From assembly GCF_046105845.1 (NCBI RefSeq), contig NZ_CP151004.1: a stretch of 64,000 nucleotides of DNA; one strand, written 5' to 3'. The translations under genes and the position numbers were made by a program. Positions 96-53,986 of the stretch are shown here, piece by piece. The DNA comes from Escherichia coli. GTDB lineage: Bacteria > Pseudomonadota > Gammaproteobacteria > Enterobacterales > Enterobacteriaceae. The first letter of the stretch is position 1. Each line of letters starts with the position of its first letter. The notes under the pieces were generated by a model, which worked only from the letters and a program-made list of their open reading frames with translations, was not told where the DNA came from and searched no databases.

Positions 96-2772
96 CGAAC
101 CCTTACGTCCCGATCCCGATCGTCTGCTGGAACAAACTGCCGCGCCGCATCGGGGGAAGCTGAAAGTTTTCTTCGGTGCCTGTGCGGGCGTCGGGAAGAC
201 CTGGGCGATGCTGGCAGAGGCCCAGCGACTGCGGGCGCAAGGGCTGGATATTGTGGTTGGCGTGGTTGAAACCCACGGGCGGAAAGATACCGCCGCAATG
301 CTGGAAGGGCTGGCTGTTCTGCCGCCCAAACGCCAGGCGTACCGTGGGCGGCACATCAGCGAGTTTGATCTCGATGCCGCCCTCGCCCGCCGTCCGGCGC
401 TGATCTTAATGGACGAACTGGCGCACAGTAATGCGCCAGGTTCTCGTCATCCTAAACGCTGGCAGGACATCGAAGAGCTGCTGGAAGCGGGCATTGATGT
501 TTTCACAACCGTCAACGTTCAGCATCTGGAAAGTCTGAATGATGTGGTCAGCGGCGTCACCGGAATTCAGGTACGGGAAACCGTGCCCGATCCTTTTTTC
601 GATGCCGCCGACGACGTGGTGCTGGTGGACTTGCCCCCGGACGATCTGCGCCAGCGGCTGAAAGAAGGCAAAGTCTATATTGCCGGGCAGGCGGAGCGCG
701 CCATTGAACATTTTTTTCGCAAAGGCAATCTGATCGCCCTGCGCGAACTGGCACTGCGCCGTACTGCCGATCGCGTAGATGAGCAAATGCGCGCCTGGCG
801 GGGGCATCCTGGCGAAGAGAAAGTGTGGCACACGCGCGACGCGATCCTTTTATGCATCGGGCATAACACCGGCAGTGAGAAACTGGTCCGCGCGGCGGCG
901 CGGCTGGCGTCGAGGCTGGGTAGCGTCTGGCACGCGGTGTATGTTGAAACCCCTGCCCTGCATCGCTTACCGGAGAAAAAACGTCGGGCAATTCTCAGCG
1001 CCTTACGTCTGGCGCAGGAGCTGGGCGCGGAGACGGCAACACTTTCTGATCCAGCGGAAGAGAAAGCGGTAGTGCGTTATGCCCGTGAACATAATCTCGG
1101 CAAGATTATTCTCGGTCGCCCGGCCTCACGCCGCTGGTGGCGTCGGGAAACGTTTGCTGACCGACTGGCGCGCATCGCCCCCGATCTCGATCAGGTGCTG
1201 GTCGCGCTTGATGAACCACCCGCCCGCACGATTAACAACGCGCCGGATAGCCGCTCTTTTAAAGACAAGTGGCGGGTACAGATTCAGGGATGCGTGGTTG
1301 CCGCCGCGTTATGCGCCGTTATCACCTTAATTGCCATGCAGTGGCTGATGGCGTTTGATGCCGCCAACCTGGTGATGCTGTATCTACTTGGCGTGGTGGT
1401 GGTGGCGCTATTTTATGGACGCTGGCCTTCGGTGGTTGCTACCGTCATTAATGTGGTGAGTTTCGATCTCTTTTTTATCGCCCCACGCGGCACGCTCGCC
1501 GTCTCTGATGTGCAATATCTGCTGACCTTCGCGGTGATGTTAACCGTCGGGCTGGTGATCGGGAACCTTACTGCTGGCGTGCGTTATCAGGCGCGGGTAG
1601 CCCGTTACCGCGAGCAACGCACACGGCACTTATATGAAATGTCGAAAGCACTGGCGGTGGGCCGCAGTCCGCAGGACATCGCCGCCACCAGCGAACAATT
1701 TATTGCCTCCACGTTTCATGCCCGCAGCCAGGTGTTGCTGCCTGATGACAACGGTAAATTGCAGCCGTTAACACATCCGCAAGGAATGACGCCGTGGGAC
1801 GATGCCATCGCGCAGTGGGGTTTTGATAAAGGCCTGCCTGCGGGTGCGGGCACCGACACGTTACCCGGCGTGCCGTACCAGATTTTGCCGTTAAAAAGCG
1901 GTGAGAAAACCTACGGACTGGTGGTGGTGGAGCCGGGGAATCTGCGCCAGTTGATGATCCCGGAACAGCAGCGCCTGCTGGAGACGTTTACGCTGTTAGT
2001 CGCCAATGCCCTTGAGCGGCTGACGCTAACCGCCAGCGAAGAACAGGCGCGGATGGCAAGCGAACGTGAACAGATCCGCAACGCCCTGCTGGCGGCGCTT
2101 TCGCATGATTTACGCACTCCGCTTACGGTGCTGTTCGGTCAGGCAGAAATCTTAACGCTCGATCTGGCGAGCGAAGGATCGCCCCACGCCCGCCAGGCCA
2201 GCGAGATTCGTCAGCATGTGCTGAACACGACCCGACTGGTGAATAATCTACTGGATATGGCGCGAATTCAGTCCGGCGGCTTTAATTTGAAGAAAGAGTG
2301 GTTAACGCTGGAAGAAGTGGTCGGCAGCGCGCTGCAAATGCTGGAACCGGGTTTATCGTCGCCTATCAATCTTTCTCTGCCAGAACCGCTGACCTTAATC
2401 CGCGTTGACGGGCCACTGTTTGAACGGGTGCTGATTAATCTGCTGGAGAACGCGGTGAAATACGCGGGTGCACAGGCCGAAATTGGTATCAATGCCCACG
2501 TTGAGTGCGAAAATCTAGAACTGGATGTCTGGGATAACGGCCCCGGTCTTCCACCAGGCCAGGAGCAGACGATATTTGATAAGTTTGCTCGCGGGAATAA
2601 AGAGTCGGCGGTACCGGGTGTAGGGCTTGGGTTGGCAATTTGTCGGGCGATAGTGGATGTACACGGCGGCACCATTACCGCATTCAACCGACCGGAAGGT
2701 GGTGCCTGTTTTCGTGTTACACTTCCCCAGCAAACAGCCCCTGAACTTGAAGAATTTCATGAGGATATGTGA
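88..2772 (+). CDS. kdpD: Sensor histidine kinase KdpD (894 aa)
   Basis: ORF 55..2772; internal ATG at 88 gives [16 protein letters not shown]..., Walker-type GACAGVGKT, 4 TM segments, HDLRTP H-box and C-terminal HATPase motifs. Confidence 0.95.
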
Positions 2773-3446
2773 CAAACGTTCTGATTGTTGAAGATGAACA
2801 GGCTATTCGTCGCTTTCTGCGCACGGCGCTGGAGGGCGATGGGATGCGCGTCTTTGAGGCCGAAACGCTGCAACGCGGCTTGCTGGAAGCGGCAACCCGT
2901 AAGCCAGATTTGATTATTCTCGATCTCGGCCTGCCCGATGGTGATGGGATTGAGTTTATCCGCGACCTGCGCCAGTGGAGCGCGGTGCCGGTGATTGTGC
3001 TTTCCGCACGTAGCGAAGAGAGCGACAAAATCGCCGCGCTGGATGCCGGAGCGGATGATTACCTGAGTAAGCCATTTGGTATTGGCGAATTGCAGGCCCG
3101 TCTGCGCGTCGCTTTACGCCGCCACTCCGCCACCACCGCGCCCGATCCGCTGGTGAAATTTTCCGATGTTACCGTCGATTTAGCGGCTCGTGTGATCCAT
3201 CGCGGTGAGGAAGAGGTGCATCTCACACCAATTGAGTTTCGCCTGCTGGCGGTGCTGCTCAACAATGCCGGAAAAGTGCTCACCCAGCGCCAGCTCCTTA
3301 ACCAGGTGTGGGGACCAAACGCGGTCGAACACAGTCATTATTTGCGTATTTATATGGGGCATCTGCGACAAAAACTGGAGCAAGATCCCGCCCGCCCCCG
3401 CCACTTCATTACTGAAACCGGTATTGGGTATCGGTTTATGCTTTAG
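2769..3446 (+). CDS. kdpE: Response regulator KdpE (225 aa), GTG start overlapping kdpD stop
   Basis: [20 protein letters not shown]..., receiver domain plus OmpR-type winged helix; GTG at 2769 within ATGTGA junction. Confidence 0.95.
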   Translation: MTNVLIVEDEQAIRRFLRTALEGDGMRVFEAETLQRGLLEAATRKPDLIILDLGLPDGDGIEFIRDLRQWSAVPVIVLSARSEESDKIAALDAGADDYLSKPFGIGELQARLRVALRRHSATTAPDPLVKFSDVTVDLAARVIHRGEEEVHLTPIEFRLLAVLLNNAGKVLTQRQLLNQVWGPNAVEHSHYLRIYMGHLRQKLEQDPARPRHFITETGIGYRFML

Positions 3447-3454
3447 GCGGTTAA

Positions 3455-3560
3455 ATGCTGGATCCGGCATGAACGCCTTATCCGGCCTACAAAATAGCGC
3501 AAATTCAATATATTGCACCATCTTCCCAGGCCTGATAAGCGTAGCGCATCAGGCAGTCAT
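3455..3560. repeat. REP-type palindromic units in kdpE-pgm spacer
   Basis: ggatccggcatgaacgccttatccggcctac and caggcctgataagcgtagcgcatcaggc, typical REP consensus-like imperfect palindromes. Confidence 0.5.
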
Positions 3561-3564
3561 AAGT

Positions 3565-3596
3565 AAAAAAGGGCGATCTTCCGACCGCCCTTTTTC
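3565..3596. terminator. Bidirectional rho-independent terminator shared by convergent kdpE and pgm
   Basis: aaaaaa-GGGCG-atcttccgac-CGCCC-ttttt: GC stem flanked by A-run and T-run. Confidence 0.55.
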
Positions 3597-3609
3597 TTAT
3601 TAAATGTGT

Positions 3610-5250
3610 TTACGCGTTTTTCAGAACTTCGCTAACAATCTCAACCGCTTCTTTCTCAATCTGCTTGCGATGTTCTTCCCCGAGGAAGCTTTCGCAATAA
3701 ATCTTGTACGCGTCTTCCGTGCCTGACGGACGCGCGGCGAACCAGCCGTTGTCAGTCATCACTTTCAGACCGCCAATAGAAGCACCGTTGCCCGGAGCAG
3801 CAGTCAGGCGTGCGGTGATCGGGTCACCTGCCAGGGTGCTGGCGCTCACCATTTCCGGAGACAGCTTAGACAGCGCCGCTTTTTGTGCGGAAGTCGCAGC
3901 TGCCTGCAAACGGTTGTAGCTCGGCGCACCAAAGCGTTTTGCCAGTTCGTTGTAGTGTTCCTGCGGGTTCTTACCGGTGACAGCGGTGATTTCCGCCGCC
4001 AGCAGACACATGATGATGCCGTCTTTGTCGGTGGACCACGGCGTGCCGTCGAAACGCAGGAAGGAAGCCCCTGCGCTCTCTTCGCCGCCAAAGCCGAAGC
4101 TGCCGTCGAACAGACCATCAACAAACCATTTGAAACCTACCGGGACTTCTACCAGCTTACGGCCCAAATCATTGACCACACGGTCGATCATCGCAGAAGA
4201 AACCAGCGTTTTACCGACAGCAACATCTTTGCCCCACTGCGGACGATGCTGGAACAGGTAGTTGATCGCCACCGCCAGGTAGTGGTTCGGATTCATCAAA
4301 CCTGCCGGAGTGACGATACCGTGACGGTCATAATCCGGGTCGTTAGCAAACGCCAGATCGAACTTATCACGCAGTGCCAGCAGGCCCGCCATCGCACACT
4401 CGGAGGAGCAGTCCATACGGATCGCGCCGTCTTTATCGAGGTGCATAAAGCGGAAGGTTTGATCGACCTGATCGTTAACGATGGTCAGGTTGAGGTTGTA
4501 ATACTCGCCAATGCGCTTCCAGTATTCGATACCGGAACCACCCAGCGGATCAACGCCCAGCGTCAGGCCCGCTTTCTGAATCGCCGCCATATCAACGATA
4601 TCGGCCAGCCCTTCCACAAACGGCTGCACCAGATCCTGCTCTTTCACATGACCGGATGCCATCGCTTCGTCGAGGGAGATACGCTTCACGCCTTTCAGGC
4701 CATCAGCCATCAGTGCGTTGGCCCTGTCTTCCACCACTTTAGTGACGTTGGTATCAGCCGGGCCACCATTTGGCGGATTGTACTTGATACCACCATCTTC
4801 CGGCGGGTTATGAGACGGTGTGATCACGATACCGTCTGCCAGCGGGCCACCTTTTTTATTGTGAACCAGGATGGCATTGGAAACGGCAGGCGTCGGGGTG
4901 AAGCCATTGTTTTCCTGCACAATGACATCAACGCCATTCGCTGCCAGCACTTCCAGTACGGAAATGAACGCAGGCTCGGACAGGGCGTGAGTATCTTTAC
5001 CCACATAGCAAGGGCCAGTGATGCCGTTTTTCGCACGTTCTTCAGCAATTGCCTGAGCGATCGCCAGAATGTGCGGCTCGTTAAAGCTGTGGCGCGCTGC
5101 ACTGCCACGGTGACCGGAAGTACCGAATTTCACCGCGTGCTCCGCATTCCCTGCTTCTGGTTTCAGTACATAATATTGCGCCGTCAGTTGGGCGACGTTA
5201 ATCAAATCACTCTGTTGTGCAGGTTGGCCTGCACGATTGTGGATTGCCAT
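3610..5250 (-). CDS. pgm: Phosphoglucomutase (546 aa)
   Basis: ORF 3610..5301; internal ATG at 5250 gives [22 protein letters not shown]...; TSGHRGS-type phosphoserine loop. Confidence 0.95.
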
Positions 5251-8097: not shown

Positions 8098-8169
8098 TCA
8101 AGAGCAAATTCTGTCACTTCTCCTAATGAAGTGAACCGCTTAGTAACAGGACAGATTCCGCATGACTGA
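8083..8169 (+). CDS. uof: uof leader peptide upstream of fur (28 aa), translationally coupled
   Basis: MIRIISRANSVTSPNEVNRLVTGQIPHD; stop TGA 8167-8169 overlaps fur ATG at 8162. Confidence 0.8.
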   Translation: MIRIISRANSVTSPNEVNRLVTGQIPHD

Positions 8170-21407: not shown

Positions 21408-21484
21408 GGCTACGTAGCTCAGTTGGTTAGAGCACATCACTCATAATGATGGGGTCACAGGTTCGAATCCCGTCGTAGCCACCA
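21408..21484 (+). tRNA. metT: tRNA-Met (CAU), elongator
   Basis: GGCTACGTAGCTCAGTTGGTTAGAGC...CTCATAA anticodon loop...GTAGCCACCA; cloverleaf, encoded CCA. Confidence 0.9.
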
Positions 21485-21492
21485 TCTTTTTT

Positions 21493-21577
21493 GCGGGAGT
21501 GGCGAAATTGGTAGACGCACCAGATTTAGGTTCTGGCGCCGCAAGGTGTGCGAGTTCAAGTCTCGCCTCCCGCACCA
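21493..21577 (+). tRNA. leuW: tRNA-Leu (UAG), long variable arm
   Basis: GCGGGAGTGGCGAAATTGGTAGACGCACCAGATTTAGGTTCTGG...CGCACCA; anticodon TAG. Confidence 0.9.
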
Positions 21578-21600
21578 TTCACCAGAAAGCGTTGTACGGA

Positions 21601-21675
21601 TGGGGTATCGCCAAGCGGTAAGGCACCGGTTTTTGATACCGGCATTCCCTGGTTCGAATCCAGGTACCCCAGCCA
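21601..21675 (+). tRNA. glnU: tRNA-Gln (UUG)
   Basis: TGGGGTATCGCCAAGCGGTAAGGCACCGGTTTTTGATACCGG...CCCCAGCCA; anticodon TTG. Confidence 0.9.
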
Positions 21676-21709
21676 TCTTCTTCGAGTAAGCGGTTCACCG
21701 CCCGGTTAT

Positions 21710-21784
21710 TGGGGTATCGCCAAGCGGTAAGGCACCGGTTTTTGATACCGGCATTCCCTGGTTCGAATCCAGGTACCCCAGCCA
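21710..21784 (+). tRNA. glnW: tRNA-Gln (UUG), second copy
   Basis: Identical sequence to the copy at 21601. Confidence 0.9.
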
Positions 21785-21799
21785 TCGAAGAAACAATCT

Positions 21800-21876
21800 G
21801 GCTACGTAGCTCAGTTGGTTAGAGCACATCACTCATAATGATGGGGTCACAGGTTCGAATCCCGTCGTAGCCACCA
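21800..21876 (+). tRNA. metU: tRNA-Met (CAU), elongator, second copy
   Basis: Identical sequence to the copy at 21408. Confidence 0.9.
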
Positions 21877-21924
21877 AATTCTGAATGTGTCGAATAAGTT
21901 CGGCAAATTCACAAACCAATTTGT

Positions 21925-21999
21925 TGGGGTATCGCCAAGCGGTAAGGCACCGGATTCTGATTCCGGCATTCCGAGGTTCGAATCCTCGTACCCCAGCCA
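21925..21999 (+). tRNA. glnV: tRNA-Gln (CUG)
   Basis: TGGGGTATCGCCAAGCGGTAAGGCACCGGATTCTGATTCCGG...; anticodon CTG. Confidence 0.9.
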
Positions 22000-22036
22000 A
22001 TTTATTCAAGACGCTTACCTTGTAAGTGCACCCAGT

Positions 22037-22111
22037 TGGGGTATCGCCAAGCGGTAAGGCACCGGATTCTGATTCCGGCATTCCGAGGTTCGAATCCTCG
22101 TACCCCAGCCA
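22037..22111 (+). tRNA. glnX: tRNA-Gln (CUG), second copy
   Basis: Identical sequence to the copy at 21925. Confidence 0.9.
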
Positions 22112-25046: not shown

Positions 25047-25162
25047 CTCTCTTTATCCCCATCTTTATCGCAATGCTTGCGCCTTTTTCCTGTGGCGTGA
25101 ATAATTTCCTTATAGGCCGGTGAATGTTCAGCTTCCGGCGGCATACAGATAAGAGGAACGGT

Positions 25163-26203
25163 TTGAACATAGACACTCGCGAAATCACCCTGGAGCCAGC
25201 AGACAACGCGCGTCTGTTGAGCCTGTGCGGCCCGTTTGATGACAACATCAAACAACTCGAACGCCGTCTCGGCATCGAAATCAATCGCCGCGATAACCAC
25301 TTTAAACTGACCGGCCGTCCGATTTGCGTCACCGCTGCGGCAGACATTCTGCGTAGCCTGTATGTCGATACTGCCCCGATGCGCGGTCAGATTCAGGATA
25401 TTGAACCGGAACAGATCCACCTTGCGATTAAAGAAGCGCGGGTACTGGAGCAAAGCGCGGAGAGCGTGCCGGAGTACGGCAAAGCGGTCAATATCAAAAC
25501 CAAACGCGGCGTAATCAAGCCGCGCACGCCAAACCAGGCGCAGTACATCGCCAATATTCTCGACCATGACATTACCTTCGGCGTTGGCCCGGCGGGTACG
25601 GGTAAAACCTACCTGGCAGTGGCTGCAGCAGTTGATGCCCTGGAGCGTCAGGAAATTCGCCGTATTCTGCTGACTCGTCCGGCGGTAGAAGCCGGTGAGA
25701 AACTGGGCTTCCTGCCTGGCGATTTAAGCCAGAAAGTAGATCCGTATCTGCGCCCGCTGTACGACGCGCTGTTTGAAATGCTGGGCTTTGAGAAAGTCGA
25801 GAAACTGATTGAGCGCAACGTTATTGAAGTCGCGCCGCTGGCCTATATGCGTGGCCGTACGCTGAACGACGCGTTTATCATTCTCGATGAAAGCCAGAAC
25901 ACCACCATCGAACAGATGAAGATGTTCCTGACCCGTATCGGTTTTAACTCAAAAGCGGTTATCACCGGCGACGTCACGCAGATCGACCTGCCGCGTAATA
26001 CTAAATCAGGCTTACGTCATGCCATCGAAGTGCTGGCTGACGTCGAAGAGATCAGCTTTAACTTCTTCCACAGCGAAGACGTGGTTCGTCACCCGGTGGT
26101 GGCGCGTATCGTTAACGCTTATGAAGCCTGGGAAGAAGCAGAACAAAAACGTAAAGCGGCGCTGGCAGCAGAACGCAAGCGCGAAGAACAGGAACAAAAA
26201 TGA
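25163..26203 (+). CDS. ybeZ: PhoH-like ATPase YbeZ (346 aa), probable TTG start
   Basis: ORF 25124..26203; TTG at 25163 preceded by AAGAGGA gives (M)[18 protein letters not shown]...; Walker A GPAGTGKT. Confidence 0.9.
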
Positions 26204-29333: not shown

Positions 29334-31211
29334 TTACGGTTCAGGGATACAAGCCACATTGCCATATTGGGGATGACGAATAATTGCCTGCGGATCAAGC
29401 GAGCGCGTCCTGTCCAGTTGGATTAACCCGTTCTTCGCCATAACAAATATTTTTCTACCATCCGCTGAAAAACGAAGGTGATTAACGTAGCTGGCAGGAT
29501 AAACGCCAATAATCTGCCCGGCATTAATATTGAGCTGGATGACATAACCTTGCAGGCCATATGACACCAACGCTAAATATTGACCGTCCGGGCTAATACC
29601 CTCAACGGAATAAACGCTCCTGCTACACCATTGCGTCATAATACTGGCTTGTTGATCCTCAGCTCTTATACGTGAAATCCCCTGGCTATCGGCAAAAATA
29701 ATCTCTCCATTTTTTGGTCGGAATCCCATCGCAGAAACGACACCACGCGCATCACCTGCGGGAAAGTCTTCTTTCTGATGCGTGATGGTATTGATGCGTA
29801 CAATGTCACCTCTGACCATACCGGGTATCAACAATGTTTTTTCATCCGGGGAAAGTGCCATAACCCAGGCACCAGGTTTATTACTCGTCCCCGTCCCGTC
29901 GTATTTCTCCAGCGGGATATCCGCCACATGCTGATAAGTCACCAGATCAATGGCTGACACACTATTACTGGTGCGATTCATCACCCAAGCTTTTGTGCCA
30001 TCACGCGAGAGGATAAGACTGTCAGGATGTGCACCGGTGGTAATCGACTGAATAATCTCCCCCGTCGCCACGTTAATGACCGATAACGCATTCGCTTCAA
30101 ATGAAGTCGCATAAAGCAACGTTTCATCCGGGCTTAGCGCCAGCGATCTGACGCCCTGATCTTTACAGCCACCACAATGTTTGACTGACTTTTCTTTCGC
30201 TATGGGGGCTGTAAAGGTATGCAGGATTTTCTTTTGTCCGAGGTCGAAAACAACAATGCTGTTGGTGTTTTCAATTGCGGCATACAACGTATTACCATCC
30301 CGACTGATCGCCATATCATGGATATCGGAAATCTCAGCGAGCAAATCACCACTGGCCTGTTCACGACTTACCGGAGCGGATAATGTTTCCCTGAGGGCGT
30401 TGCGTTCCTCCGCTAACTGCTGCTTTTTTTGCCGTCGCTCTTGTTCAATCTCCTGTGGATAAAACTCTTCACGCAGGCTTTGCCTGACTTGTAAAACTGA
30501 CTCACCCATCTGCTGCTGCGCAAGCCAGATAGCCCCGGTCAGAAGAAGACTACCCGCAACAATAATCCCGCCTTCCGTAACAAGCCGGTTTTGCCCATAT
30601 AAACGCGCACTCAGCCCCCCCATCGCGCCACCCGCAATCAGGCCGCCAATGTGGCAAGCGTTATCTATTCCTGTTTGCCGGGCACCGTACAACAGTGTCA
30701 GCGCCACCATACCCAGCAGAGGAAATACTCGCCGCTGGTTTTTATGGTGTGTGCCCGCACCTGAAGCAAGCTGTGTTGCTATCGCAGCGCCAGCTATTCC
30801 CATAATCGCCCCGGATGCCCCAACGCTGATGACTATCTGCTCACTTTCGCGTAACGCATAACAGGCACTGATTAGCCCACCAAAGACGCCGGAGAATAAC
30901 CAGATAATCAGAAGTCGCCATTTCCCCAGTATCCGCTCCGCCACTGCCCCCACCACCAGAAGTGCAAACATATTCATCAGCAAATGGGGAAAACTACTGT
31001 GCAGAAAGACACTGCTCAATAAGCGCCAGGATTCGCCCGACAACGTGAGAGAAGTAACGTTAGCACCGAGATGGATGAGTGCGGATTGATCGACTTCTTC
31101 ATAACTCATCCATTGTGCGAGGTAACAAAATATCCCAACACAGAGCGCAAAAAGGATAAGGGTTATTGCGGGTAATTGAACATTTAACGGCTTAACCGAA
31201 GATGCAGACAT
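29334..31211 (-). CDS. Rhomboid-family intramembrane serine protease (7 TM) fused via a charged linker to a C-terminal YVTN/YncE-like beta-propeller (625 aa); not a gene I recognise from E. coli K-12
   Basis: Single 625-codon ORF. N-terminal residues 1-235: rhomboid motifs WR (62-63), HxxxN (H76, N80), GASG with catalytic Ser133, ACHIGG with His187, plus seventh hydrophobic helix 216-232. Residues 240-285 charged (EEFYPQEIEQERRQKKQQLAEERNALRE). Residues 286-625: about seven repeats of [LI]S[PR]DG..[LI]...N......[IV]D-type beta-strand blades. Confidence 0.85.
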   Translation of the reverse strand: MSASSVKPLNVQLPAITLILFALCVGIFCYLAQWMSYEEVDQSALIHLGANVTSLTLSGESWRLLSSVFLHSSFPHLLMNMFALLVVGAVAERILGKWRLLIIWLFSGVFGGLISACYALRESEQIVISVGASGAIMGIAGAAIATQLASGAGTHHKNQRRVFPLLGMVALTLLYGARQTGIDNACHIGGLIAGGAMGGLSARLYGQNRLVTEGGIIVAGSLLLTGAIWLAQQQMGESVLQVRQSLREEFYPQEIEQERRQKKQQLAEERNALRETLSAPVSREQASGDLLAEISDIHDMAISRDGNTLYAAIENTNSIVVFDLGQKKILHTFTAPIAKEKSVKHCGGCKDQGVRSLALSPDETLLYATSFEANALSVINVATGEIIQSITTGAHPDSLILSRDGTKAWVMNRTSNSVSAIDLVTYQHVADIPLEKYDGTGTSNKPGAWVMALSPDEKTLLIPGMVRGDIVRINTITHQKEDFPAGDARGVVSAMGFRPKNGEIIFADSQGISRIRAEDQQASIMTQWCSRSVYSVEGISPDGQYLALVSYGLQGYVIQLNINAGQIIGVYPASYVNHLRFSADGRKIFVMAKNGLIQLDRTRSLDPQAIIRHPQYGNVACIPEP

Positions 31212-31665: not shown

Positions 31666-32574
31666 ATGCAATTACGTAAACCTGCCACAGCAATCCTGGC
31701 CCTGGCGCTTTCCGCAGGACTGGCACAGGCAGATGACGCCGCCCCGGCAGCGGGCAGTACGCTGGACAAAATCGCCAAAAACGGTGTGATTGTCGTCGGT
31801 CACCGTGAATCTTCAGTACCTTTCTCTTATTACGACAATCAGCAAAAAGTGGTGGGTTACTCGCAGGATTACTCCAACGCCATTGTTGAAGCAGTGAAAA
31901 AGAAACTCAACAAACCAGACTTGCAGGTGAAACTGATTCCGATCACCTCACAAAACCGTATTCCACTGCTGCAAAACGGCACTTTCGATTTTGAATGTGG
32001 TTCTACCACCAACAACGTCGAACGCCAAAAACAGGCGGCTTTCTCTGACACTATTTTCGTGGTCGGTACGCGCCTGTTGACCAAAAAGGGTGGCGATATC
32101 AAAGATTTCGCCGATCTGAAAGGCAAAGCCGTAGTCGTCACTTCCGGCACTACCTCTGAAGTTTTGCTCAACAAACTGAATGAAGAGCAAAAAATGAATA
32201 TGCGAATTATCAGCGCCAAAGATCACGGTGACTCTTTCCGCACCCTGGAAAGCGGTCGTGCCGTTGCCTTTATGATGGATGATGCTCTGCTGGCTGGTGA
32301 ACGTGCGAAAGCGAAGAAACCAGACAACTGGGAAATCGTCGGCAAGCCGCAGTCTCAGGAAGCCTACGGTTGTATGTTGCGTAAAGACGATCCGCAGTTC
32401 AAAAAGCTGATGGATGACACTATCGCTCAGGTGCAGACCTCCGGTGAAGCGGAAAAATGGTTTGATAAATGGTTCAAAAATCCCATTCCGCCGAAAAACC
32501 TGAACATGAATTTCGAACTGTCGGACGAAATGAAAGCACTGTTCAAAGAACCGAATGACAAAGCACTGAACTAA
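31666..32574 (+). CDS. gltI: Glutamate/aspartate ABC transporter periplasmic binding protein GltI (302 aa)
   Basis: ORF 31591..32574; ATG 31666 preceded by AAGGAG gives MQLRKPATAILALALSAGLAQA... signal peptide. Confidence 0.95.
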   Translation: MQLRKPATAILALALSAGLAQADDAAPAAGSTLDKIAKNGVIVVGHRESSVPFSYYDNQQKVVGYSQDYSNAIVEAVKKKLNKPDLQVKLIPITSQNRIPLLQNGTFDFECGSTTNNVERQKQAAFSDTIFVVGTRLLTKKGGDIKDFADLKGKAVVVTSGTTSEVLLNKLNEEQKMNMRIISAKDHGDSFRTLESGRAVAFMMDDALLAGERAKAKKPDNWEIVGKPQSQEAYGCMLRKDDPQFKKLMDDTIAQVQTSGEAEKWFDKWFKNPIPPKNLNMNFELSDEMKALFKEPNDKALN

Positions 32575-32577
32575 TTA

Positions 32578-32731
32578 CAAGAACCAGGGGCGGAAATTCC
32601 AGCCCTCTCGATTGTTACGTAGCACGGACAGACTATACGCCTGATGGTCGTTCCCCATCGGGCCTGAAAACCGCAATACGCTGGGTAACAATCTTCGAGG
32701 GTAGCAGTTAACGCTGCTACCCTCTTTTTTC
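32578..32731 (+). ncRNA. sroC: SroC sRNA (GcvB sponge) processed from the gltI-gltJ spacer
   Basis: Conserved gltI-gltJ intergenic region ending in terminator GGGTAGCAGttaacGCTGCTACCCtctttttt; position matches the known SroC locus. Confidence 0.6.
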
Positions 32732-32743
32732 TGGAGTAGATTT

Positions 32744-33484
32744 ATGTCTATAGACTGGAACTGGGGTATTTTTTTACAACAAGCCCCGTTCGGCAACACC
32801 ACCTATCTTGGTTGGATCTGGAGTGGTTTTCAGGTCACGATCGCTTTGTCGATCTGCGCCTGGATTATCGCTTTCCTCGTCGGTTCATTTTTCGGCATTT
32901 TACGTACCGTTCCAAACCGTTTTCTCTCCGGTCTGGGTACGTTGTATGTCGAACTGTTCCGCAACGTGCCGTTGATTGTGCAATTCTTTACCTGGTATCT
33001 GGTGATCCCGGAGCTGCTGCCGGAGAAAATCGGCATGTGGTTTAAGGCCGAGCTGGATCCCAATATTCAGTTTTTCCTTTCATCCATGCTCTGCCTGGGG
33101 CTGTTTACCGCCGCCCGTGTTTGCGAACAGGTACGCGCCGCGATCCAGTCGCTGCCGCGTGGGCAGAAGAATGCCGCGCTGGCGATGGGTCTGACGCTGC
33201 CGCAGGCTTACCGCTATGTACTGTTGCCTAATGCTTATCGCGTTATCGTCCCGCCGATGACCTCCGAGATGATGAACCTGGTGAAAAACTCCGCCATCGC
33301 CTCGACCATCGGTCTGGTGGATATGGCGGCGCAGGCGGGTAAATTGCTCGACTACTCGGCCCACGCCTGGGAGTCGTTTACCGCCATCACGCTGGCGTAT
33401 GTGTTGATTAACGCGGTTATCATGCTGGTAATGACGCTGGTTGAACGTAAAGTTCGCCTGCCCGGCAACATGGGGGGCAAATAA
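32744..33484 (+). CDS. gltJ: Glutamate/aspartate ABC transporter permease GltJ (246 aa)
   Basis: [35 protein letters not shown]..., polar amino-acid permease family. Confidence 0.95.
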
Positions 33485-34158
33485 TGTACGAGTTTGACTG
33501 GAGTTCCATTGTCCCTTCCCTGCCATATCTGCTCGACGGGCTGGTGATCACCCTGAAAATCACCGTCACGGCAGTCGTGATTGGTATTTTGTGGGGCACC
33601 ATGCTGGCGGTGATGCGCTTGTCCAGCTTTGCGCCCGTAGCGTGGTTTGCCAAAGCCTACGTTAACGTATTCCGCTCGATTCCTTTAGTTATGGTTTTGC
33701 TGTGGTTTTACCTGATTGTGCCGGGTTTTCTGCAAAACGTGCTGGGATTATCGCCAAAAAATGATATCCGTTTAATTTCGGCGATGGTGGCGTTTTCGAT
33801 GTTTGAAGCGGCCTACTATTCAGAGATTATCCGCGCCGGTATTCAAAGTATTTCTCGTGGTCAGTCGAGCGCCGCGCTGGCGTTGGGGATGACTCACTGG
33901 CAGTCGATGAAACTGATTATTCTGCCGCAGGCGTTCCGCGCGATGGTGCCGCTGCTGCTCACTCAGGGCATCGTACTGTTCCAGGATACCTCACTGGTGT
34001 ATGTGTTATCTCTGGCCGATTTCTTCCGTACCGCCTCAACCATTGGTGAGCGTGATGGTACGCAGGTTGAGATGATCCTGTTTGCCGGATTTGTTTATTT
34101 CGTTATTAGCCTTAGCGCATCGTTGTTGGTCAGCTACTTGAAAAGAAGGACAGCATAA
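33484..34158 (+). CDS. gltK: Glutamate/aspartate ABC transporter permease GltK (224 aa)
   Basis: [31 protein letters not shown]...; start overlaps gltJ stop (TAATG). Confidence 0.95.
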
Positions 34159-34883
34159 TGATTACCCTGAAAAATGTTTCAAAATGGTATGGTCACTTTC
34201 AGGTGCTGACCGACTGCTCAACCGAAGTGAAAAAAGGCGAAGTGGTGGTGGTTTGCGGCCCGTCTGGTTCCGGCAAATCAACGCTGATTAAAACCGTCAA
34301 CGGCCTCGAACCGGTGCAGCAAGGTGAAATCACCGTCGATGGCATCGTGGTTAACGACAAGAAAACCGATCTGGCAAAGCTGCGTTCCCGCGTCGGGATG
34401 GTGTTCCAGCATTTCGAGTTGTTCCCCCATTTGTCGATTATTGAAAACCTGACCCTGGCGCAGGTGAAAGTGCTTAAACGCGATAAAGCACCCGCTCGTG
34501 AAAAAGCATTGAAATTGCTGGAGCGCGTCGGGCTTTCCGCACATGCCAATAAGTTTCCGGCGCAGCTTTCCGGCGGTCAGCAGCAGCGTGTGGCGATCGC
34601 TCGCGCATTGTGCATGGATCCTATCGCGATGCTGTTCGACGAACCGACATCGGCGCTGGATCCGGAGATGATCAACGAAGTGCTGGACGTGATGGTGGAA
34701 CTGGCGAACGAAGGAATGACCATGATGGTGGTGACCCACGAAATGGGCTTTGCCCGTAAAGTGGCGAATCGGGTGATCTTTATGGACGAGGGTAAAATTG
34801 TCGAAGACTCGCCGAAAGACGCTTTCTTCGATGATCCGAAATCGGACCGCGCAAAAGACTTCCTCGCGAAAATCCTGCATTAA
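34158..34883 (+). CDS. gltL: Glutamate/aspartate ABC transporter ATP-binding protein GltL (241 aa)
   Basis: [45 protein letters not shown]..., Walker A, LSGGQQQR signature. Confidence 0.95.
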
Positions 34884-35000
34884 TCACTCTGGCGCGCATA
34901 CCCAATTGCGCGCCATCTCACGCTTTATCGTTTCGCCCCTCGTATCTGTTACATCCTGGCGTTACCCTTGTCGCAAAGAAGCACACAACAAGGAGCAACA

Positions 35001-35936
35001 ATGGCACTGCCAATTCTGTTAGATTGCGACCCAGGTCATGACGACGCTATCGCAATAGTTCTCGCCCTCGCCTCACCAGAGCTTGATGTCAAAGCAATTA
35101 CGTCTTCCGCCGGAAACCAGACACCAGAAAAAACCTTACGCAATGTTCTGCGTATGCTGACCTTGCTTAATCGCACCGATATTCCGGTAGCAGGCGGCGC
35201 GGTAAAACCGTTAATGCGTGAGTTGATTATCGCGGACAATGTGCACGGCGAAAGCGGTCTCGACGGCCCGGCATTACCGGAACCGACGTTCGCACCGCAA
35301 AACTGTACGGCGGTAGAGCTGATGGCGAAAACACTACGTGAAAGTGCGGAACCTGTCACGATTGTTTCTACCGGACCGCAAACTAACGTTGCCTTGCTGC
35401 TCAATAGCCACCCGGAACTGCATAGCAAAATTGCCCGTATCGTGATTATGGGCGGTGCAATGGGGCTTGGTAACTGGACGCCTGCGGCTGAATTTAATAT
35501 TTACGTTGACCCGGAAGCGGCAGAAATTGTCTTCCAGTCAGGGATCCCGGTGGTGATGGCCGGTCTGGATGTTACTCACAAAGCACAAATTCACGTTGAG
35601 GACACCGAGCGTTTCCGCGCCATTGGCAACCCTGTTTCAACCATTGTTGCCGAACTGCTGGATTTCTTCCTCGAATATCATAAAGACGAAAAATGGGGCT
35701 TTGTCGGCGCACCGCTGCATGACCCATGCACCATCGCCTGGCTGTTAAAACCGGAGTTGTTTACCACTGTTGAGCGCTGGGTTGGCGTGGAAACACAAGG
35801 GAAATATACCCAGGGTATGACGGTTGTTGATTATTATTATCTGACCGGCAATAAACCGAATGCTACTGTAATGGTCGATGTTGATCGTCAGGGCTTTGTT
35901 GATTTACTGGCTGATCGTCTGAAATTTTACGCTTAA
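35001..35936 (+). CDS. rihA: Pyrimidine-specific ribonucleoside hydrolase RihA (311 aa)
   Basis: ORF 34968..35936; ATG 35001 gives [22 protein letters not shown]..., DxDxxxDD nucleoside hydrolase motif. Confidence 0.95.
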
Positions 35937-35942
35937 TCACTC

Positions 35943-35967
35943 GCCGGATGACATCACGCCATCCGGC
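35943..35967. repeat. Short REP-like hairpin in the 44-bp rihA-ybeL spacer
   Basis: GCCGGATGacatcacgcCATCCGGC. Confidence 0.4.
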
Positions 35968-35980
35968 ACCACTCATTTCA

Positions 35981-36463
35981 TTAAGGCTCGAACGGGCGTC
36001 TCTGGAACTGGTCATGACCACATTTCGGGCATAGCGTCAGCACTTCCGGTGTATAGATCGGGAGATGGAAATGACATTTCTCGCAGACCAGATTTCCCAG
36101 CCCTACCACTTCTCCGCTGTGATAAACCCCGTGATGATTGAGGTCCTGGAAAACTTCGCGCCATTCAAGCTGCGTTTTATCGGTGATGTCTGCCAGCTCC
36201 TGCCACAAGCTTTCTTTAATCACCCGCATAAAGACGCTGTCAGACTCTTCTTTCAGGCTCTCTTCATAGCTCATGGCGAACTCTTCCAGGTCACGTCTGA
36301 CAGCTCGCGTCAGCTCATCGACTTCGGTTCGCGTTAACTCCCCTGTTTTTATTACGCGCTCGCGCGCCTGTTCCACCAGTGCGTCGATATCACGTTCGCC
36401 ATTGCGCAGGCGTTCGCTCAGTGACGCGACCAGTTCACGGTAATATTGAGCAACCTTGTTCAT
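35981..36463 (-). CDS. ybeL: DUF1451 zinc-ribbon protein YbeL (160 aa)
   Basis: ORF MNKVAQYYRELVASLSERLRNGERDIDALVEQ..., C-terminal CxxC...CPxCG. Confidence 0.9.
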   Translation of the reverse strand: MNKVAQYYRELVASLSERLRNGERDIDALVEQARERVIKTGELTRTEVDELTRAVRRDLEEFAMSYEESLKEESDSVFMRVIKESLWQELADITDKTQLEWREVFQDLNHHGVYHSGEVVGLGNLVCEKCHFHLPIYTPEVLTLCPKCGHDQFQRRPFEP

Positions 36464-39295: not shown

Positions 39296-39877
39296 GTGCG
39301 ATATCTGGCAACATTGTTGTTATCTCTGGCGGTGTTAATCACCGCCGGGTGTGGCTGGCATCTGCGTGATACCACGCAGGTTCCTTCCACTATGAAGGTC
39401 ATGATCCTGGACTCAGGCGATCCGAACGGGCCATTAAGCCGTGCGGTGCGTAACCAGTTACGTCTGAATGGTGTCGAGTTGCTTGATAAAGAAACCACGC
39501 GTAAGGACGTTCCATCCCTGCGTTTGGGTAAAGTGAGCATCGCGAAAGATACCGCATCGGTATTCCGTAACGGTCAAACAGCAGAGTATCAGATGATCAT
39601 GACGGTCAATGCGACCGTGTTGATCCCCGGCCGTGACATCTACCCGATTAGCGCCAAAGTCTTCCGTTCGTTCTTCGATAACCCGCAAATGGCGTTAGCG
39701 AAAGATAACGAACAAGACATGATCGTAAAAGAGATGTACGACCGTGCTGCCGAACAGCTGATTCGTAAGCTGCCAAGCATCCGTGCTGCGGATATTCGTT
39801 CCGACGAAGAACAGACGTCGACCACAACGGATACTCCGGCAACGCCTGCACGCGTCTCTACCACGCTGGGTAACTGA
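39296..39877 (+). CDS. lptE: LPS assembly lipoprotein LptE (193 aa), GTG start
   Basis: [26 protein letters not shown]..., lipobox ITAGC; immediately downstream of leuS. Confidence 0.93.
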
Positions 39878-40908
39878 TGATTCGGTTGTACCCGGAACAA
39901 CTCCGCGCGCAGCTCAATGAAGGGCTGCGCGCGGCGTATCTTTTACTTGGTAACGATCCTCTGTTATTGCAGGAAAGCCAGGACGCTATTCGTCAGGTAG
40001 CTACGGTACAAGGATTCGAAGAACACCACACTTTTTCCATTGATCCCAACACTGACTGGAATGCGATCTTTTCGTTATGCCAGGCCATGAGTCTGTTTGC
40101 CAGTCGACAAACGCTATTGCTGTTGTTACCAGAAAACGGACCGAATGCGGCGATCAATGAACAACTTCTCACACTCACCGGACTTCTGCATGACGACCTG
40201 CTGTTGATCGTCCGCGGTAATAAATTAAGCAAAGCGCAAGAAAATGCCGCCTGGTTTACTGCTCTTGCGAATCGCAGCGTGCAGGTGACCTGTCAGACAC
40301 CGGAGCAGGCTCAGCTTCCCCGCTGGGTTGCTGCGCGCGCAAAACAGCTCAACTTAGAACTGGATGACGCGGCGAATCAGGTGCTCTGCTACTGTTATGA
40401 AGGTAACCTGCTGGCGCTGGCTCAGGCACTGGAGCGTTTATCGCTACTCTGGCCAGACGGCAAACTGACATTACCTCGCGTTGAACAGGCGGTGAATGAT
40501 GCCGCGCATTTCACCCCTTTTCATTGGGTTGATGCTTTGTTGATGGGAAAAAGTAAGCGCGCGTTGCATATTCTTCAGCAACTGCGTCTGGAAGGCAGCG
40601 AACCGGTTATTTTGTTGCGCACATTACAACGTGAACTGTTGTTACTGGTTAACCTGAAACGCCAGTCTGCCCATACGCCACTGCGTGCGTTGTTTGATAA
40701 GCATCGGGTATGGCAGAACCGCCGGGGCATGCTGGGCGAGGCGTTAAATCGCTTAAGCCAGCCGCAGTTACGTCAGGCCGTGCAACTCCTGACACGAACG
40801 GAACTCACCCTCAAACAAGATTACGGTCAGTCAGTGTGGGCAGAGCTGGAAGGGTTATCTCTTCTGTTATGCCATAAACCCCTGGCGGACGTATTTATCG
40901 ACGGTTGA
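39877..40908 (+). CDS. holA: DNA polymerase III delta subunit HolA (343 aa)
   Basis: [43 protein letters not shown]... Confidence 0.95.
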
Positions 40909-41551: not shown

Positions 41552-41574
41552 TACCTGTCGTTACGGAGGGCATG

Positions 41575-42186
41575 ATGCGACTGTGGTTAATTCGTCATGG
41601 TGAAACGCAAGCGAATATCGATGGTCTTTACAGCGGTCATGCGCCCACCCCCCTGACTGCGCGCGGTATTGAGCAAGCGCAAAATCTGCATACGCTGCTA
41701 CATGGTGTTTCCTTTGACCTGGTTTTATGCAGTGAACTGGAACGGGCACAGCATACCGCGCGACGGGTTCTCAGTGACCGCCAGCTCCCCGTGCAAATCA
41801 TCCCTGAACTCAACGAAATGTTTTTTGGCGACTGGGAGATGCGACATCATCGCGACCTCATGCAAGAAGATGCCGAAAACTATAGCGCGTGGTGCAATGA
41901 CTGGCAGCATGCTATCCCCACGAACGGTGAAGGATTTCAGGCATTTTCACAACGTGTGGAACGGTTTATCGCAAGGCTTAGTGAATTTCAGCACTATCAG
42001 AATATTTTAGTCGTCAGCCATCAGGGTGTACTGAGTCTGTTAATCGCCCGTTTAATTGGTATGCCTGCCGAAGCTATGTGGCATTTTCGCGTTGACCAGG
42101 GGTGTTGGAGCGCCATTGATATCAACCAAAAATTCGCGACGCTACGCGTCCTCAATAGCCGTGCCATCGGGGTCGAGAATGCATGA
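41575..42186 (+). CDS. cobC: Alpha-ribazole phosphatase / phosphoglycerate-mutase family protein CobC (203 aa)
   Basis: ORF 41572..42186, MRLWLIRHGETQANIDGLYSGH..., RHG histidine phosphatase motif. Confidence 0.9.
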   Translation: MRLWLIRHGETQANIDGLYSGHAPTPLTARGIEQAQNLHTLLHGVSFDLVLCSELERAQHTARRVLSDRQLPVQIIPELNEMFFGDWEMRHHRDLMQEDAENYSAWCNDWQHAIPTNGEGFQAFSQRVERFIARLSEFQHYQNILVVSHQGVLSLLIARLIGMPAEAMWHFRVDQGCWSAIDINQKFATLRVLNSRAIGVENA

Positions 42187-42427: not shown

Positions 42428-42763
<336 letters not shown>

Positions 42764-42766
42764 TGC

Positions 42767-43234
42767 GTGAAGCTGCAACTTGTCGCCGTGGGAACGAAAA
42801 TGCCGGACTGGGTACAAACTGGTTTTACCGAGTACCTGCGTCGTTTTCCGAAAGATATGCCCTTCGAGCTGATTGAAATTCCGGCCGGAAAACGCGGCAA
42901 GAATGCGGACATCAAGCGCATACTCGACAAAGAGGGTGAGCAGATGTTGGCGGCCGCAGGCAAAAACCGCATTGTCACCCTCGATATTCCAGGCAAGCCC
43001 TGGGATACGCCGCAGTTAGCCGCTGAGCTGGAACGCTGGAAGCTGGATGGTCGCGACGTCAGTCTACTGATTGGCGGGCCTGAAGGGTTGTCGCCTGCCT
43101 GTAAAGCGGCGGCTGAGCAGAGCTGGTCGCTGTCGGCGCTTACCCTCCCCCATCCGCTGGTTCGCGTGCTGGTCGCAGAGAGTCTGTACCGGGCGTGGAG
43201 CATCACCACCAACCATCCTTATCACCGTGAGTGA
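42767..43234 (+). CDS. rlmH: 23S rRNA m3Psi1915 methyltransferase RlmH (155 aa), GTG start
   Basis: [48 protein letters not shown]... Confidence 0.93.
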
Positions 43235-49204: not shown

Positions 49205-49846
49205 TTGTATCAGGATAAAATTCTTGTCCGCCAGCTCGGTCTTCAGCCTTACGAGCCAATCTCCCAGGCTATGCATGAATTCACCGATACCCGCGATGAT
49301 AGTACCCTTGATGAAATCTGGCTGGTCGAGCACTATCCGGTATTCACCCAAGGGCAGGCAGGAAAGGCGGAGCACATTTTAATGCCGGGTGATATTCCGG
49401 TGATTCAGAGCGATCGCGGTGGGCAGGTGACTTATCACGGGCCGGGGCAACAGGTGATGTATGTGTTGCTTAACCTGAAACGCCGTAAACTCGGTGTGCG
49501 TGAACTGGTGACCTTGCTTGAGCAAACAGTGGTGAATACCCTGGCTGAACTGGGTATAGAAGCGCATCCTCGGGCTGACGCGCCTGGTGTCTATGTCGGG
49601 GAAAAGAAAATTTGCTCACTGGGTTTACGTATTCGACGCGGTTGTTCATTCCACGGTCTGGCATTAAACGTCAATATGGATCTTTCACCATTTTTACGTA
49701 TTAATCCTTGTGGGTATGCCGGAATGGAAATGGCTAAAATATCACAATGGAAACCCGAAGCGACGACTAATAATATTGCACCACGTTTACTGGAAAATAT
49801 TTTAGCGCTACTAAACAATCCTGACTTCGAATATATTACCGCTTAA
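49205..49846 (+). CDS. lipB: Octanoyltransferase LipB (213 aa), TTG start
   Basis: ORF (M)[53 protein letters not shown]... Confidence 0.95.
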
Positions 49847-52665: not shown

Positions 52666-53454
52666 TCATAATAATTGCGGCGGCGCAAAGCGACGGTTGT
52701 TTAAGACGGGCAGTTGCGCGCGCACCTGACGCACACGTTCGGGCGTCACTTCCGCCATAATGAGTGCAGGCATTTCTGACGCTGCCGCAATGGTGACGCC
52801 AAAGGGATCTATAATCCGGCTTTGCCCGATATTTTTGTTCCCGCACTCCCCCGCCGCCACCATATAACAGGTGGTATCCAGCGCACGAGCGGCAAGCAAC
52901 GTTGACCAGTGATGCTCTTTGAGCGGCCCACGAACCCAGGCGGCAGGAAGTACCAGGATTTCAGCTCCCTGTAATGCCTGTGCCAGCGCCAGCTCTGGAA
53001 AGCGTAAGTCATAACAGGTCATCAGACCGACCTTCATCCCTTCCACCTCCAGTAACGGAGCTATTTCATTACCAGCATCAACATGGCGTGATTCCTGAAT
53101 GGCAAATGCATCATAGAGATGCAGTTTGGCATAACGGGCGACGATGTTTCCTGCCTGAAGTGCCACCAGCATATTCCATGCGCGCCCCGGCGTTGAAGGA
53201 ACATGAATCGTCAGAATTGTCGTCATCATGTTACGTTTACTTTCTCGCCGTAAACGTCCGAGGAATTTGCCTTCCAGCAGCTGCGCTGATTTAACCGATA
53301 GATCTGCATCATGATCATCACGCGCCAACAATGCTTCCGGCAGGACAAACAGCGAAACGTCGTTTTCCGCCGCCTGCGCCATCAACGAGGCACAAATCTC
53401 AGCGTTCTTTTCCCACACAGATGTAACAGCAAACTGTCCTGCGGCAACCAGCAT
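52666..53454 (-). CDS. ybeM: Carbon-nitrogen hydrolase (nitrilase superfamily) YbeM-like protein, apparently intact (262 aa; alternative GTG start at 53460)
   Basis: ORF ...[47 protein letters not shown]...; E-K-C triad context (MTCYD); AGGAGG 7 nt upstream of ATG 53454. Confidence 0.8.
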
Positions 53455-53967: not shown

Positions 53968-53986
53968 GAATTCTTGCTGACGTATC

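Follow-up and report, generated by a model that had tools for sequence, protein, structure and literature searches.

In E. coli, ATG, GTG and TTG serve as start codons genome-wide at frequencies of 83, 14 and 3%, respectively (bioRxiv 10.1101/063800), and ~15% of prokaryotic gene pairs typically overlap (PMC6728339). Translational coupling at such overlaps was studied by Huber et al. (2019), who found that five of five E. coli overlapping pairs were strictly coupled (PMC6728339). A further described system is that of the ambiguous AUGUG and GUGUG sites (PMC9841429). There kdpE is one of 18 K-12 genes tabulated with an atGTG start, with a Shine-Dalgarno (SD) sequence GAGG, a DtoStart of 12 and predicted 'no ambiguity' (PMC9841429, Table 2), a prediction that derives from the SD spacing. 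A start-stop/reinitiation mechanism at AUGUGA was demonstrated in the same work on reporters, kdpE not being among the constructs.

We compared with these systems a stretch of 64,000 nucleotides of E. coli DNA, analyzed as a whole and referred to as the window. It is a chromosomal segment that extends from kdpD to citX and is the reverse complement of K-12 ~645-725 kb. All features below lie on the plus strand of the window unless stated otherwise.

Start codons across the window

All CDSs of K-12 MG1655 (NC_000913.3) and of a PGAP annotation (NZ_AP022087.1) were mapped onto the window. The curated and automatic annotations were concordant at all 59 protein-gene starts, an agreement with some circularity in it, since curated proteins serve to train the PGAP models. 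The 59 CDSs start with 51 ATG, five GTG (kdpE, lptE, rlmH, ybeF and crcB) and three TTG codons (ybeZ, rsfS and lipB). An SD-like motif is found 4-8 nt upstream of each of the eight non-ATG starts (duplex energies of -4.1 to -10.3 kcal/mol). For all eight genes the ORF beginning at the GTG or TTG has the length of the K-12 protein, and the Pfam domains begin at residues 1-31. Initiator fMet-tRNA would read these GUG and UUG codons, each placed by its SD motif.

Published start-site experiments were carried out in K-12, whose local sequence is identical to that of the window. INRI-seq (in vitro initiation profiling) reported de novo peaks at all five GTG starts, including lptE and flc (crcB), and no signal at the three TTG starts. 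The 'Meydan' column in INRI-seq Table S2 was left unused, as nearly all minus-strand genes shown there have a value of zero, among them some marked Ribo-RET-positive in another paper. In the TRAINSPOTTER tables lipB was the sole non-ATG gene among the matches listed, and the supplement of the REPARATION paper yielded no matches.

The sequence-only reading had assigned GTG starts to lptE (39296) and rlmH (42767), in addition to kdpE, and TTG starts to ybeZ (25163), lipB (49205) and rsfS (42446). The first codons obtained by mapping were the same for these six genes, and the INRI-seq peaks agree with the GTG starts. The junctions it had described were likewise found as claimed: the kdpE GTG inside the kdpD stop by direct reading of 2767-2772, TAATG at gltJ/gltK and gltK/gltL and the 1-nt lptE/holA overlap by the junction strings, and the 32-nt dpiB/dpiA overlap by the positions of the dpiA start and the dpiB stop. 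Every entry of its list was thus correct, but the list was incomplete, missing two GTG starts (ybeF and crcB) and four overlaps (kdpC/kdpD, uof/fur, ybeZ/ybeY and citD/citE). Taken together, two annotations, domain boundaries and published experiments show that both the start codons as assigned and the geometry of the overlaps are correct.

Its further claim, that the non-ATG starts correct several over-extended ORFs, holds for ybeZ, where an ATG lies upstream at 25124, but not for kdpE, lptE, rsfS, rlmH and lipB, where the GTG or TTG is the first possible start past an in-frame stop. For these five genes the realistic rival is therefore a shorter form from a downstream ATG, and the longer ATG-initiated forms proposed as counter-evidence are pertinent to ybeZ only. 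Naive longest-ORF calling in six frames does over-extend 20 of the 59 genes; 19 of these are mended by choosing an ATG, and ybeZ is the only one for which the correct start is a non-ATG codon.

Gene overlaps and possible translational coupling

Nine of the 43 co-directional junctions overlap, by 1, 4, 8 or 32 nt, a share that is unremarkable against the ~15% of prokaryotes, and seven more have gaps of 1-10 nt. At the kdpD/kdpE junction, ATGTGA (2767-2772), the last kdpD codon is ATG (2767-2769), the kdpD stop is TGA (2770-2772) and the kdpE start is GTG (2769-2771), so that the genes share 4 nt, GTGA. The kdpE ORF read from 2769 has 225 codons, and KdpE residues 1-225 are identical to the solved structures 4KNY and 6LGQ. 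The SD sequence GAGG (2761-2764) lies within the kdpD coding sequence, 4 nt before the GTG, with a duplex energy of -6.1 kcal/mol. The site fits the NUGUGA pattern, as the start lies inside an ATGTG pentamer followed by A. INRI-seq showed a peak at the annotated GTG, formed de novo in vitro in the absence of upstream translation, and the window site is identical to the K-12 sequence of the INRI-seq oligo. A ribosome ending kdpD would stop at the UGA with the kdpE GUG already beside its P site. Given the position of GAGG in kdpD, kdpE translation may come from termination-reinitiation or from fresh 30S binding. A mis-start at the out-of-frame AUG, two bases before the GUG, would yield fMet-stop only, because UGA directly follows, and could still feed reinitiation.

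Four-nucleotide ATGA overlaps are found at ybeZ/ybeY (26200-26203), where ybeY gave a strong de novo INRI-seq peak, and at citD/citE (60999-61002). The overlaps of kdpC/kdpD (ATGAATAA, 88-95) and of the fur leader peptide gene uof with fur (ATGACTGA, 8162-8169) are 8 nt long. Single-nucleotide overlaps occur in TAATG at gltJ/gltK (33482-33486) and gltK/gltL (34156-34160), with no INRI-seq peak at gltK or gltL, and in TGATG at lptE/holA (39875-39879), with a zero peak at holA. On the minus strand, dpiB and dpiA overlap by 32 nt (57595-57626), as dpiA begins with an ATG at 57626 and the dpiB stop codon runs to 57595. The DpiA receiver domain extends from residue 8, the HATPase_c domain of DpiB ends at residue 539 of 552, and the INRI-seq peak of dpiA (citB) is absent.

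Overlaps of this kind would enforce coupled, stoichiometric translation, and the sequence-only reading had described the coupling along these operons as tight. This went too far for kdpD/kdpE and ybeZ/ybeY, where coupling is not strict: in vitro, isolated fragments suffice for initiation at kdpE and ybeY, which therefore do not need their overlaps in order to be translated. The same de novo initiation would be expected if the overlaps were by-products of genome compaction and of stop and start codon drift, with downstream genes served by independent 30S binding and no functional coupling. Most downstream genes are indeed preceded by SD motifs, and overlap length drifts among species at lptE/holA and at holA/nadD, whose spacing is +1, -8, -1 or -4. 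However, gltK, gltL, holA, nadD, dpiA and citE showed zero de novo INRI-seq signal with their transcripts present in the pool, a result compatible with their needing translation of the upstream gene, although a missing peak can also reflect a weak or structured site. The overlapping state of lptE/holA (-1 or -4), if not its length, has been retained in 51 of 53 species, and the strict coupling of the pairs of Huber et al. (2019) also speaks against mere by-products, a reading that we consider rather unlikely. Translational coupling at the overlaps of the window is plausible, and overlap-enforced coupling would be most plausible at gltJKL, lptE-holA, citD-citE and dpiB-dpiA, the 32-nt overlap of the last being long for simple reinitiation.

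Non-ATG starts of individual genes

The listed non-ATG starts could in part reflect annotation convention, the true start being the upstream ATG in YbeZ or the next downstream ATG in the others (25 codons downstream in kdpE, 32 in lptE, 36 in rsfS, 11 in rlmH and 22 in lipB). The history of ybeZ lends this some credit, as the older K-12 record U00096.2 placed its start at the upstream ATG (PMC4909307). That ATG, 13 codons before the TTG, gives a 359-aa form, and the TTG (25163-25165) a 346-aa form, with the SD sequence AAGAGGA, a string also named by the sequence-only reading, at 25151-25157, 5 nt before it. The signal in tetracycline ribosome profiling (TetRP) was 79/79/45 at the TTG, whereas the formerly annotated ATG gave 0/0/0, and the new annotation is also backed by an N-terminal peptide (PMC4909307, Table S2), so the longer form is unsupported and the TTG form supported. 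For lipB, whose TTG (49205-49207) was assigned by CDS mapping and its SD motif, the formylated N-terminal peptide MYQDKILVR begins at the TTG and Ribo-RET in BL21 adds support (PMC13245402, Table S1, row 127). For ybeZ and lipB the convention argument is thus largely refuted.

Elsewhere this argument could draw on the partly circular agreement of the annotations, on the silence of the three TTG sites in INRI-seq and on the many database RsfS entries with long N-terminal extensions (e.g., P0001, 151 aa). Against it stand the INRI-seq peaks at every GTG site and the fact that use of the downstream ATGs would cost conserved domains their first 10-35 residues, or LptE its signal peptide. In KdpE, RlmH, RsfS and CrcB the domain models start within residues 1-10, so that starting at the downstream ATGs would truncate the folds. 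The lptE GTG (39296-39298) lies 14 nt past the leuS stop and is preceded by the SD sequence GGGAGGAAG (-10.3 kcal/mol). Translation from it carries a lipoprotein signal peptide (19 residues shown) and a lipobox, both needed by LptE, which supports the GTG. The lptE start is GTG in 40 of 54 species, as counted after nearest-start refinement, which replaced tblastn-extrapolated aligned starts that were noisy for lptE, nadD and mrdA; even so, only approximate counts were obtained for nadD and mrdA. The rlmH GTG (42767-42769) is located 3 nt past the rsfS stop, with the SD motif GGAG within the last rsfS codons. The Pfam SPOUT_MTase model aligns from residue 1 of its product, an INRI-seq peak is present, and the start is GTG in 92 and ATG in 24 of 117 species.

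Of the two GTG genes that the sequence-only reading had missed, ybeF starts at 50106-50108, with no other ATG, GTG or TTG from the in-frame stop to codon +40 and with an INRI-seq peak of 62-98. The second, crcB (flc), starts at 53550-53552, the Pfam CRCB domain of its product begins at residue 6 and an INRI-seq peak is present. We considered and rejected a fluoride riboswitch ahead of the crcB start, as no Rfam family reached the gathering score there; Rfam matches in the whole window were limited to seven tRNAs, sroC and, at cspE, an element of the cspA type.

The rsfS TTG (42446-42448), with the SD sequence AGGGGGAA upstream, probably is the true start, a conclusion drawn only from its annotation and conservation, the geometry of the ORF and the domain boundary. 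An in-frame TGA lies seven codons upstream, no other candidate start is found, and the Pfam RsfS domain begins at residue 10. In 112 of 117 loci the aligned start is TTG, many having a stop 2-8 codons upstream. With these results, the annotation-convention argument as a whole appears very improbable.

Adjacent synonymous positions and the rlmH GTG start vary beside the conserved rsfS TTG. The UUG and its strong, conserved SD sequence might be under purifying selection, the weak start setting or regulating the dose of RsfS relative to rlmH-mrdAB, a suggestion that we offer tentatively and regard as doubtful. More distant rsfS homologues start with ATG, and hence a conserved-UUG trait would be clade-specific. 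If the suggestion is true, the level of RsfS, the ribosome silencing factor, is tuned by its UUG start against that of the rlmH-mrdAB genes on the same transcript, and the deep conservation of this start could be a small lead to how the level of a factor blocking ribosomal subunit joining is set. An autoregulatory start of the IF3 type (the AUU of infC) was rejected for rsfS because UUG counts among the canonical alternative starts, inside the AUG/GUG/UUG set. We know of no feedback on rsfS. Polyamines were reported to have no effect on its translation (PMC10917681). When the loci were viewed by genus-level group, the TTG was found in 40 of 41 groups and never replaced by ATG, across the gammaproteobacterial orders Enterobacterales, Alteromonadales and Aeromonadales.

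Also very improbable is that the TTG starts and overlaps, by their local density, single out this region as special, for instance as a coordinated regulon of low expression: the three TTG starts among 59 genes (5.1% vs. ~3% genome-wide) include those of ybeZ and rsfS, which like the GTG-started rlmH encode ribosome-associated factors, but the genes are in separate operons, up to 24 kb apart, and regional enrichment of TTG starts was rejected by a binomial test against the genome-wide frequencies (P = 0.26 for three or more TTG; P = 0.15 for five or fewer GTG).

Comparison with described systems

The window is very probably a normal E. coli segment with standard GUG and UUG starts and ordinary gene overlaps, and the starts and overlaps listed by the sequence-only reading are routine, previously known annotation detail. 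Their main value is in quality control, as the gene model given for the window was accurate. Correct N-termini matter for the LptE signal peptide, for the receiver domains of KdpE and DpiA and for expression constructs.

In regard to the pairs of Huber et al. (2019), the window shares the -4 class (kdpD/kdpE, ybeZ/ybeY and citD/citE) and the -1 class (gltJ/gltK, gltK/gltL and lptE/holA), and as in those pairs the SD motifs fall inside the upstream gene. It differs in that kdpD/kdpE has GTGA rather than ATGA and in that the window pairs are known from their geometry; dpiB/dpiA (-32), kdpC/kdpD and uof/fur (both -8) lie outside these classes. The known uof-fur leader coupling is represented here by the same 8-nt overlap, annotated in both references. 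Unlike plain AUGUG(A) start-stop sites, the AUG-UGA at kdpE doubles as the normal terminus of kdpD, a long ORF upstream, and the site therefore joins ordinary operon coupling with start-stop geometry. Compared with the canonical alternative starts of E. coli (GUG in ~14% and UUG in ~3% of genes), the window shows the same codons, normal SD spacing and an initial Met, and its GUG- and UUG-started genes do not differ from them, their frequencies being as expected.

Start codons of the window

All coding sequences from the curated K-12 annotation and from the PGAP annotation of NZ_AP022087.1 were placed on the window by blastn. The two annotations agreed on every start position of the 59 CDSs that begin inside it, with 51 ATG, five GTG and three TTG. 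Neither the non-ATG starts nor the overlaps of the window exceed what is expected by chance; for the start codons, tested against the 83/14/3% (ATG/GTG/TTG) quoted for E. coli (bioRxiv 10.1101/063800), P(TTG≥3) was 0.26 and P(GTG≤5) 0.15. The sequence-only reading had listed GTG starts for lptE (39296) and rlmH (42767) and TTG starts for ybeZ (25163), rsfS (42446) and lipB (49205), and both mappings reproduced these positions exactly. Every entry in its list of starts and overlaps was right, yet the list lacked two GTG starts found by the same mapping, ybeF (50106) and crcB (flc; 53550), as well as four overlaps.

That reading also proposed that the listed starts correct several over-extended ORFs. 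This holds for ybeZ, the only one of these genes with an upstream in-frame ATG (25124, 13 codons 5′ of the TTG). In kdpE, lptE, rsfS, rlmH, lipB, ybeF and crcB the GTG or TTG is already the first ATG/GTG/TTG past an in-frame stop, so the alternative that truly competes is a shorter protein. The annotated form falls short of the longest six-frame ORF in 20 of the 59 genes; for 19 of these, the right start is an ATG past a spurious TTG, GTG or ATG. The interpretation was thus largely right, yet incomplete and partly mis-framed.

The longer form of ybeZ is largely refuted by published data: tetracycline-inhibited ribosome profiling (TetRP) moved the start by +39 nt to the TTG, with signals of 79/79/45 there against 0/0/0 at the former ATG, and the revised start is matched by an N-terminal peptide (PMC4909307 Table S2 row 7). 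The AAGAGGA listed by the sequence-only reading is present at 25151-25157, 5 nt ahead of the TTG. The TTG of lipB is likewise supported, by the peptide MYQDKILVR from N-terminomics and by Ribo-RET in BL21 (PMC13245402 Table S1 row 127). In-vitro initiation profiling (INRI-seq) gave peaks in at least two of five replicates at the annotated GTGs of kdpE, lptE, rlmH, ybeF and flc (crcB), and zero signal at the TTGs of ybeZ, rsfS and lipB (PMC9825163 Table S2); silence at weak de novo starts is to be expected, and it is compatible with the in vivo data for ybeZ and lipB. Among the rows of that table examined, the Meydan et al. Ribo-RET column reads zero at essentially every minus-strand gene, although several of these genes are Ribo-RET-positive in another paper; an error of coordinates or strand in the table probably accounts for the zeros.

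Protein features bear on the shorter forms. The GTG form of LptE carries a lipoprotein signal peptide, lipobox included, which would be lost if translation began at the first ATG downstream, 32 codons in. The SPOUT domain of RlmH aligned from residue 1 and the CRCB domain of CrcB from residue 6, while about 30 residues precede the LysR HTH domain of YbeF (Pfam HTH_1 from residue 31), whose gene offers no other ATG/GTG/TTG for 40 codons. In cobC, which opens with tandem in-frame ATGs (41572-41577), both references chose the second (41575).

The first 20 kb of the window were matched in 5,425 of 5,426 complete E. coli genomes (top match, 98.5% identity), and the gene order from kdpD to citX is the reverse complement of K-12 MG1655 at ~645-725 kb. 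Unlike K-12, the window lacks the ybfP...speF/potE block between kdpE and pgm (3446-3610) and the ybeQ-hscC island between ybeL and rihA (34883-36463), has a gene for a 625-aa rhomboid-family protease between lnt and gltI (29334-31211) where K-12 has IS5, and carries an intact ybeM (262 aa; 52666-53454), a pseudogene in K-12. Rfam matches comprised the sRNA sroC between gltI and gltJ (32570-32732), a cspA-type thermoregulator element across the cspE 5′ region (53939-54297) and seven clustered tRNAs for Met, Leu and Gln (21408-22108) that both reference genomes annotate; this search of the window found no fluoride riboswitch upstream of crcB.

The TTG start of rsfS

The rsfS TTG (42446-42448) is preceded by the Shine-Dalgarno motif (SD) AGGGGGAA. 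An in-frame TGA lies seven codons upstream with no candidate start between, no ATG follows until 36 codons downstream, and the RsfS Pfam domain starts at residue 10. We found no direct experimental start-site data for rsfS in the literature; one study called its UUG a 'minor start codon' and did not find a polyamine effect on its translation (PMC10917681).

A search with a degenerate DNA pattern encoding the peptide DVIVHVMQE of RsfS collected 120 loci from one-genome-per-species contigs of Enterobacterales, Alteromonadales, Aeromonadales and a few MAGs. The aligned start was TTG in 112 of 117 loci and in 40 of 41 genus groups, GTG in Shewanella and ATG in none, and many loci had an in-frame stop 2-8 codons upstream. 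Across the three orders the TTG was retained while neighbouring synonymous positions vary, and it is unusually stable outside Enterobacterales. More distant homologues (45-52% identity) started with ATG in seven of eight distinct cases (ATG in loci L125-L134, TTG in L135), and the TTG is therefore a clade-specific trait. Many database RsfS representatives carry N-terminal extensions of 40-50 residues or longer; that of the 151-aa protein P0001 reads through the E. coli-type rsfS 5′ region. Such extensions, typical of missed TTG starts, look like the result of gene callers over-extending the ORF on account of the TTG.

Elsewhere in these loci, aligned starts were GTG in 92, ATG in 24 (about ten genus groups) and TTG in one for rlmH; GTG in 40, essentially confined to Enterobacterales, and ATG in 13 for lptE; and TTG in 23, GTG in four and ATG in three for lipB. 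By these counts, the non-ATG starts are stable within Enterobacterales. Published work and the annotation of K-12 already cover all that the sequence-only reading contains; only the deeply conserved UUG of rsfS has some potential for novelty.

Overlapping and closely spaced genes

The overlaps already noticed were all present: TAATG at gltJ/gltK (33482-33486) and gltK/gltL (34156-34160), a 1-nt overlap at lptE/holA (TGATG, 39875-39879) and 32 nt at dpiB/dpiA (dpiA ATG, 57626; dpiB end, 57595). Those missed were the 8-nt overlaps of kdpC/kdpD (88-95) and uof/fur (8162-8169) and the ATGA overlaps of ybeZ/ybeY (26200-26203) and citD/citE (60999-61002). With kdpD/kdpE included, overlaps occur at nine of the 43 junctions between co-directional genes, a share of 21% (15% when all adjacent pairs are counted). 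This agrees with most prokaryotic groups, where ~15% of gene pairs show co-directional overlap (PMC6728339). Another seven junctions leave 1-10 nt between the genes, among them holA/nadD (1 nt), mrdA/mrdB (2 nt) and rsfS/rlmH (3 nt). The rlmH SD (GGAG) is encoded in the conserved last Trp-Ser/Gly codons of rsfS (CTCTGGAGTTAA; 42750-42769).

Among the same loci (L005-L124), lptE and holA overlapped in 51 of 53 species, by 1 nt in 29 and by 4 nt in 22, and were almost never apart; holA/nadD spacing varied (1-nt gap, or overlaps of 8, 1 or 4 nt), and the 3-nt rsfS/rlmH gap recurred in 77 of 114 species.

The overlap geometry and SD placement fit termination-reinitiation, and all five E. coli overlapping pairs tested by Huber et al. 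were strictly coupled (PMC6728339). De novo INRI-seq signal was zero for gltK, gltL, holA, nadD, citB (dpiA) and citE and present for kdpE and ybeY (PMC9825163), which suggests that some junctions depend on upstream translation and others are independent of it. The DpiA receiver domain begins at residue 8 and the DpiB ATPase domain stops 13 residues short of the C-terminus, so the 32-nt overlap is real; it is long for simple reinitiation.

The kdpD/kdpE junction

The GTG start of kdpE within the kdpD stop was read directly at 2767-2772 (ATGTGA) and is given by both annotations. The last sense codon of kdpD is ATG (2767-2769), followed by the stop TGA (2770-2772); the 225 codons of kdpE begin with GTG (2769-2771), for a 4-nt overlap, GTGA. 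The KdpE receiver domain aligned from residue 4, and residues 1-225 are identical to 4KNY and 6LGQ. Of 5,426 E. coli genomes, 5,415 carry the 121-nt junction at no less than 95% identity. As kdpE can initiate on an isolated fragment that includes just 30 nt ahead of the start (INRI-seq, PMC9825163), coupling to kdpD is not obligatory.

This start is already catalogued, among 18 K-12 genes in which the annotated GTG forms part of an ATGTG; the entry gives GAGG as the SD and 12 as the aligned spacing, and predicts 'no ambiguity' (PMC9841429). On reporters in that study AUGUGA acted as a start-stop, where initiation at the 5′ AUG is followed by immediate, RF2-dependent termination at UGA and reinitiation at the 3′ GUG. 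In contrast to those start-stop sites, the AUG-UGA of the window doubles as the natural end of kdpD, and classical operon coupling and the start-stop safeguard therefore coincide at kdpE.
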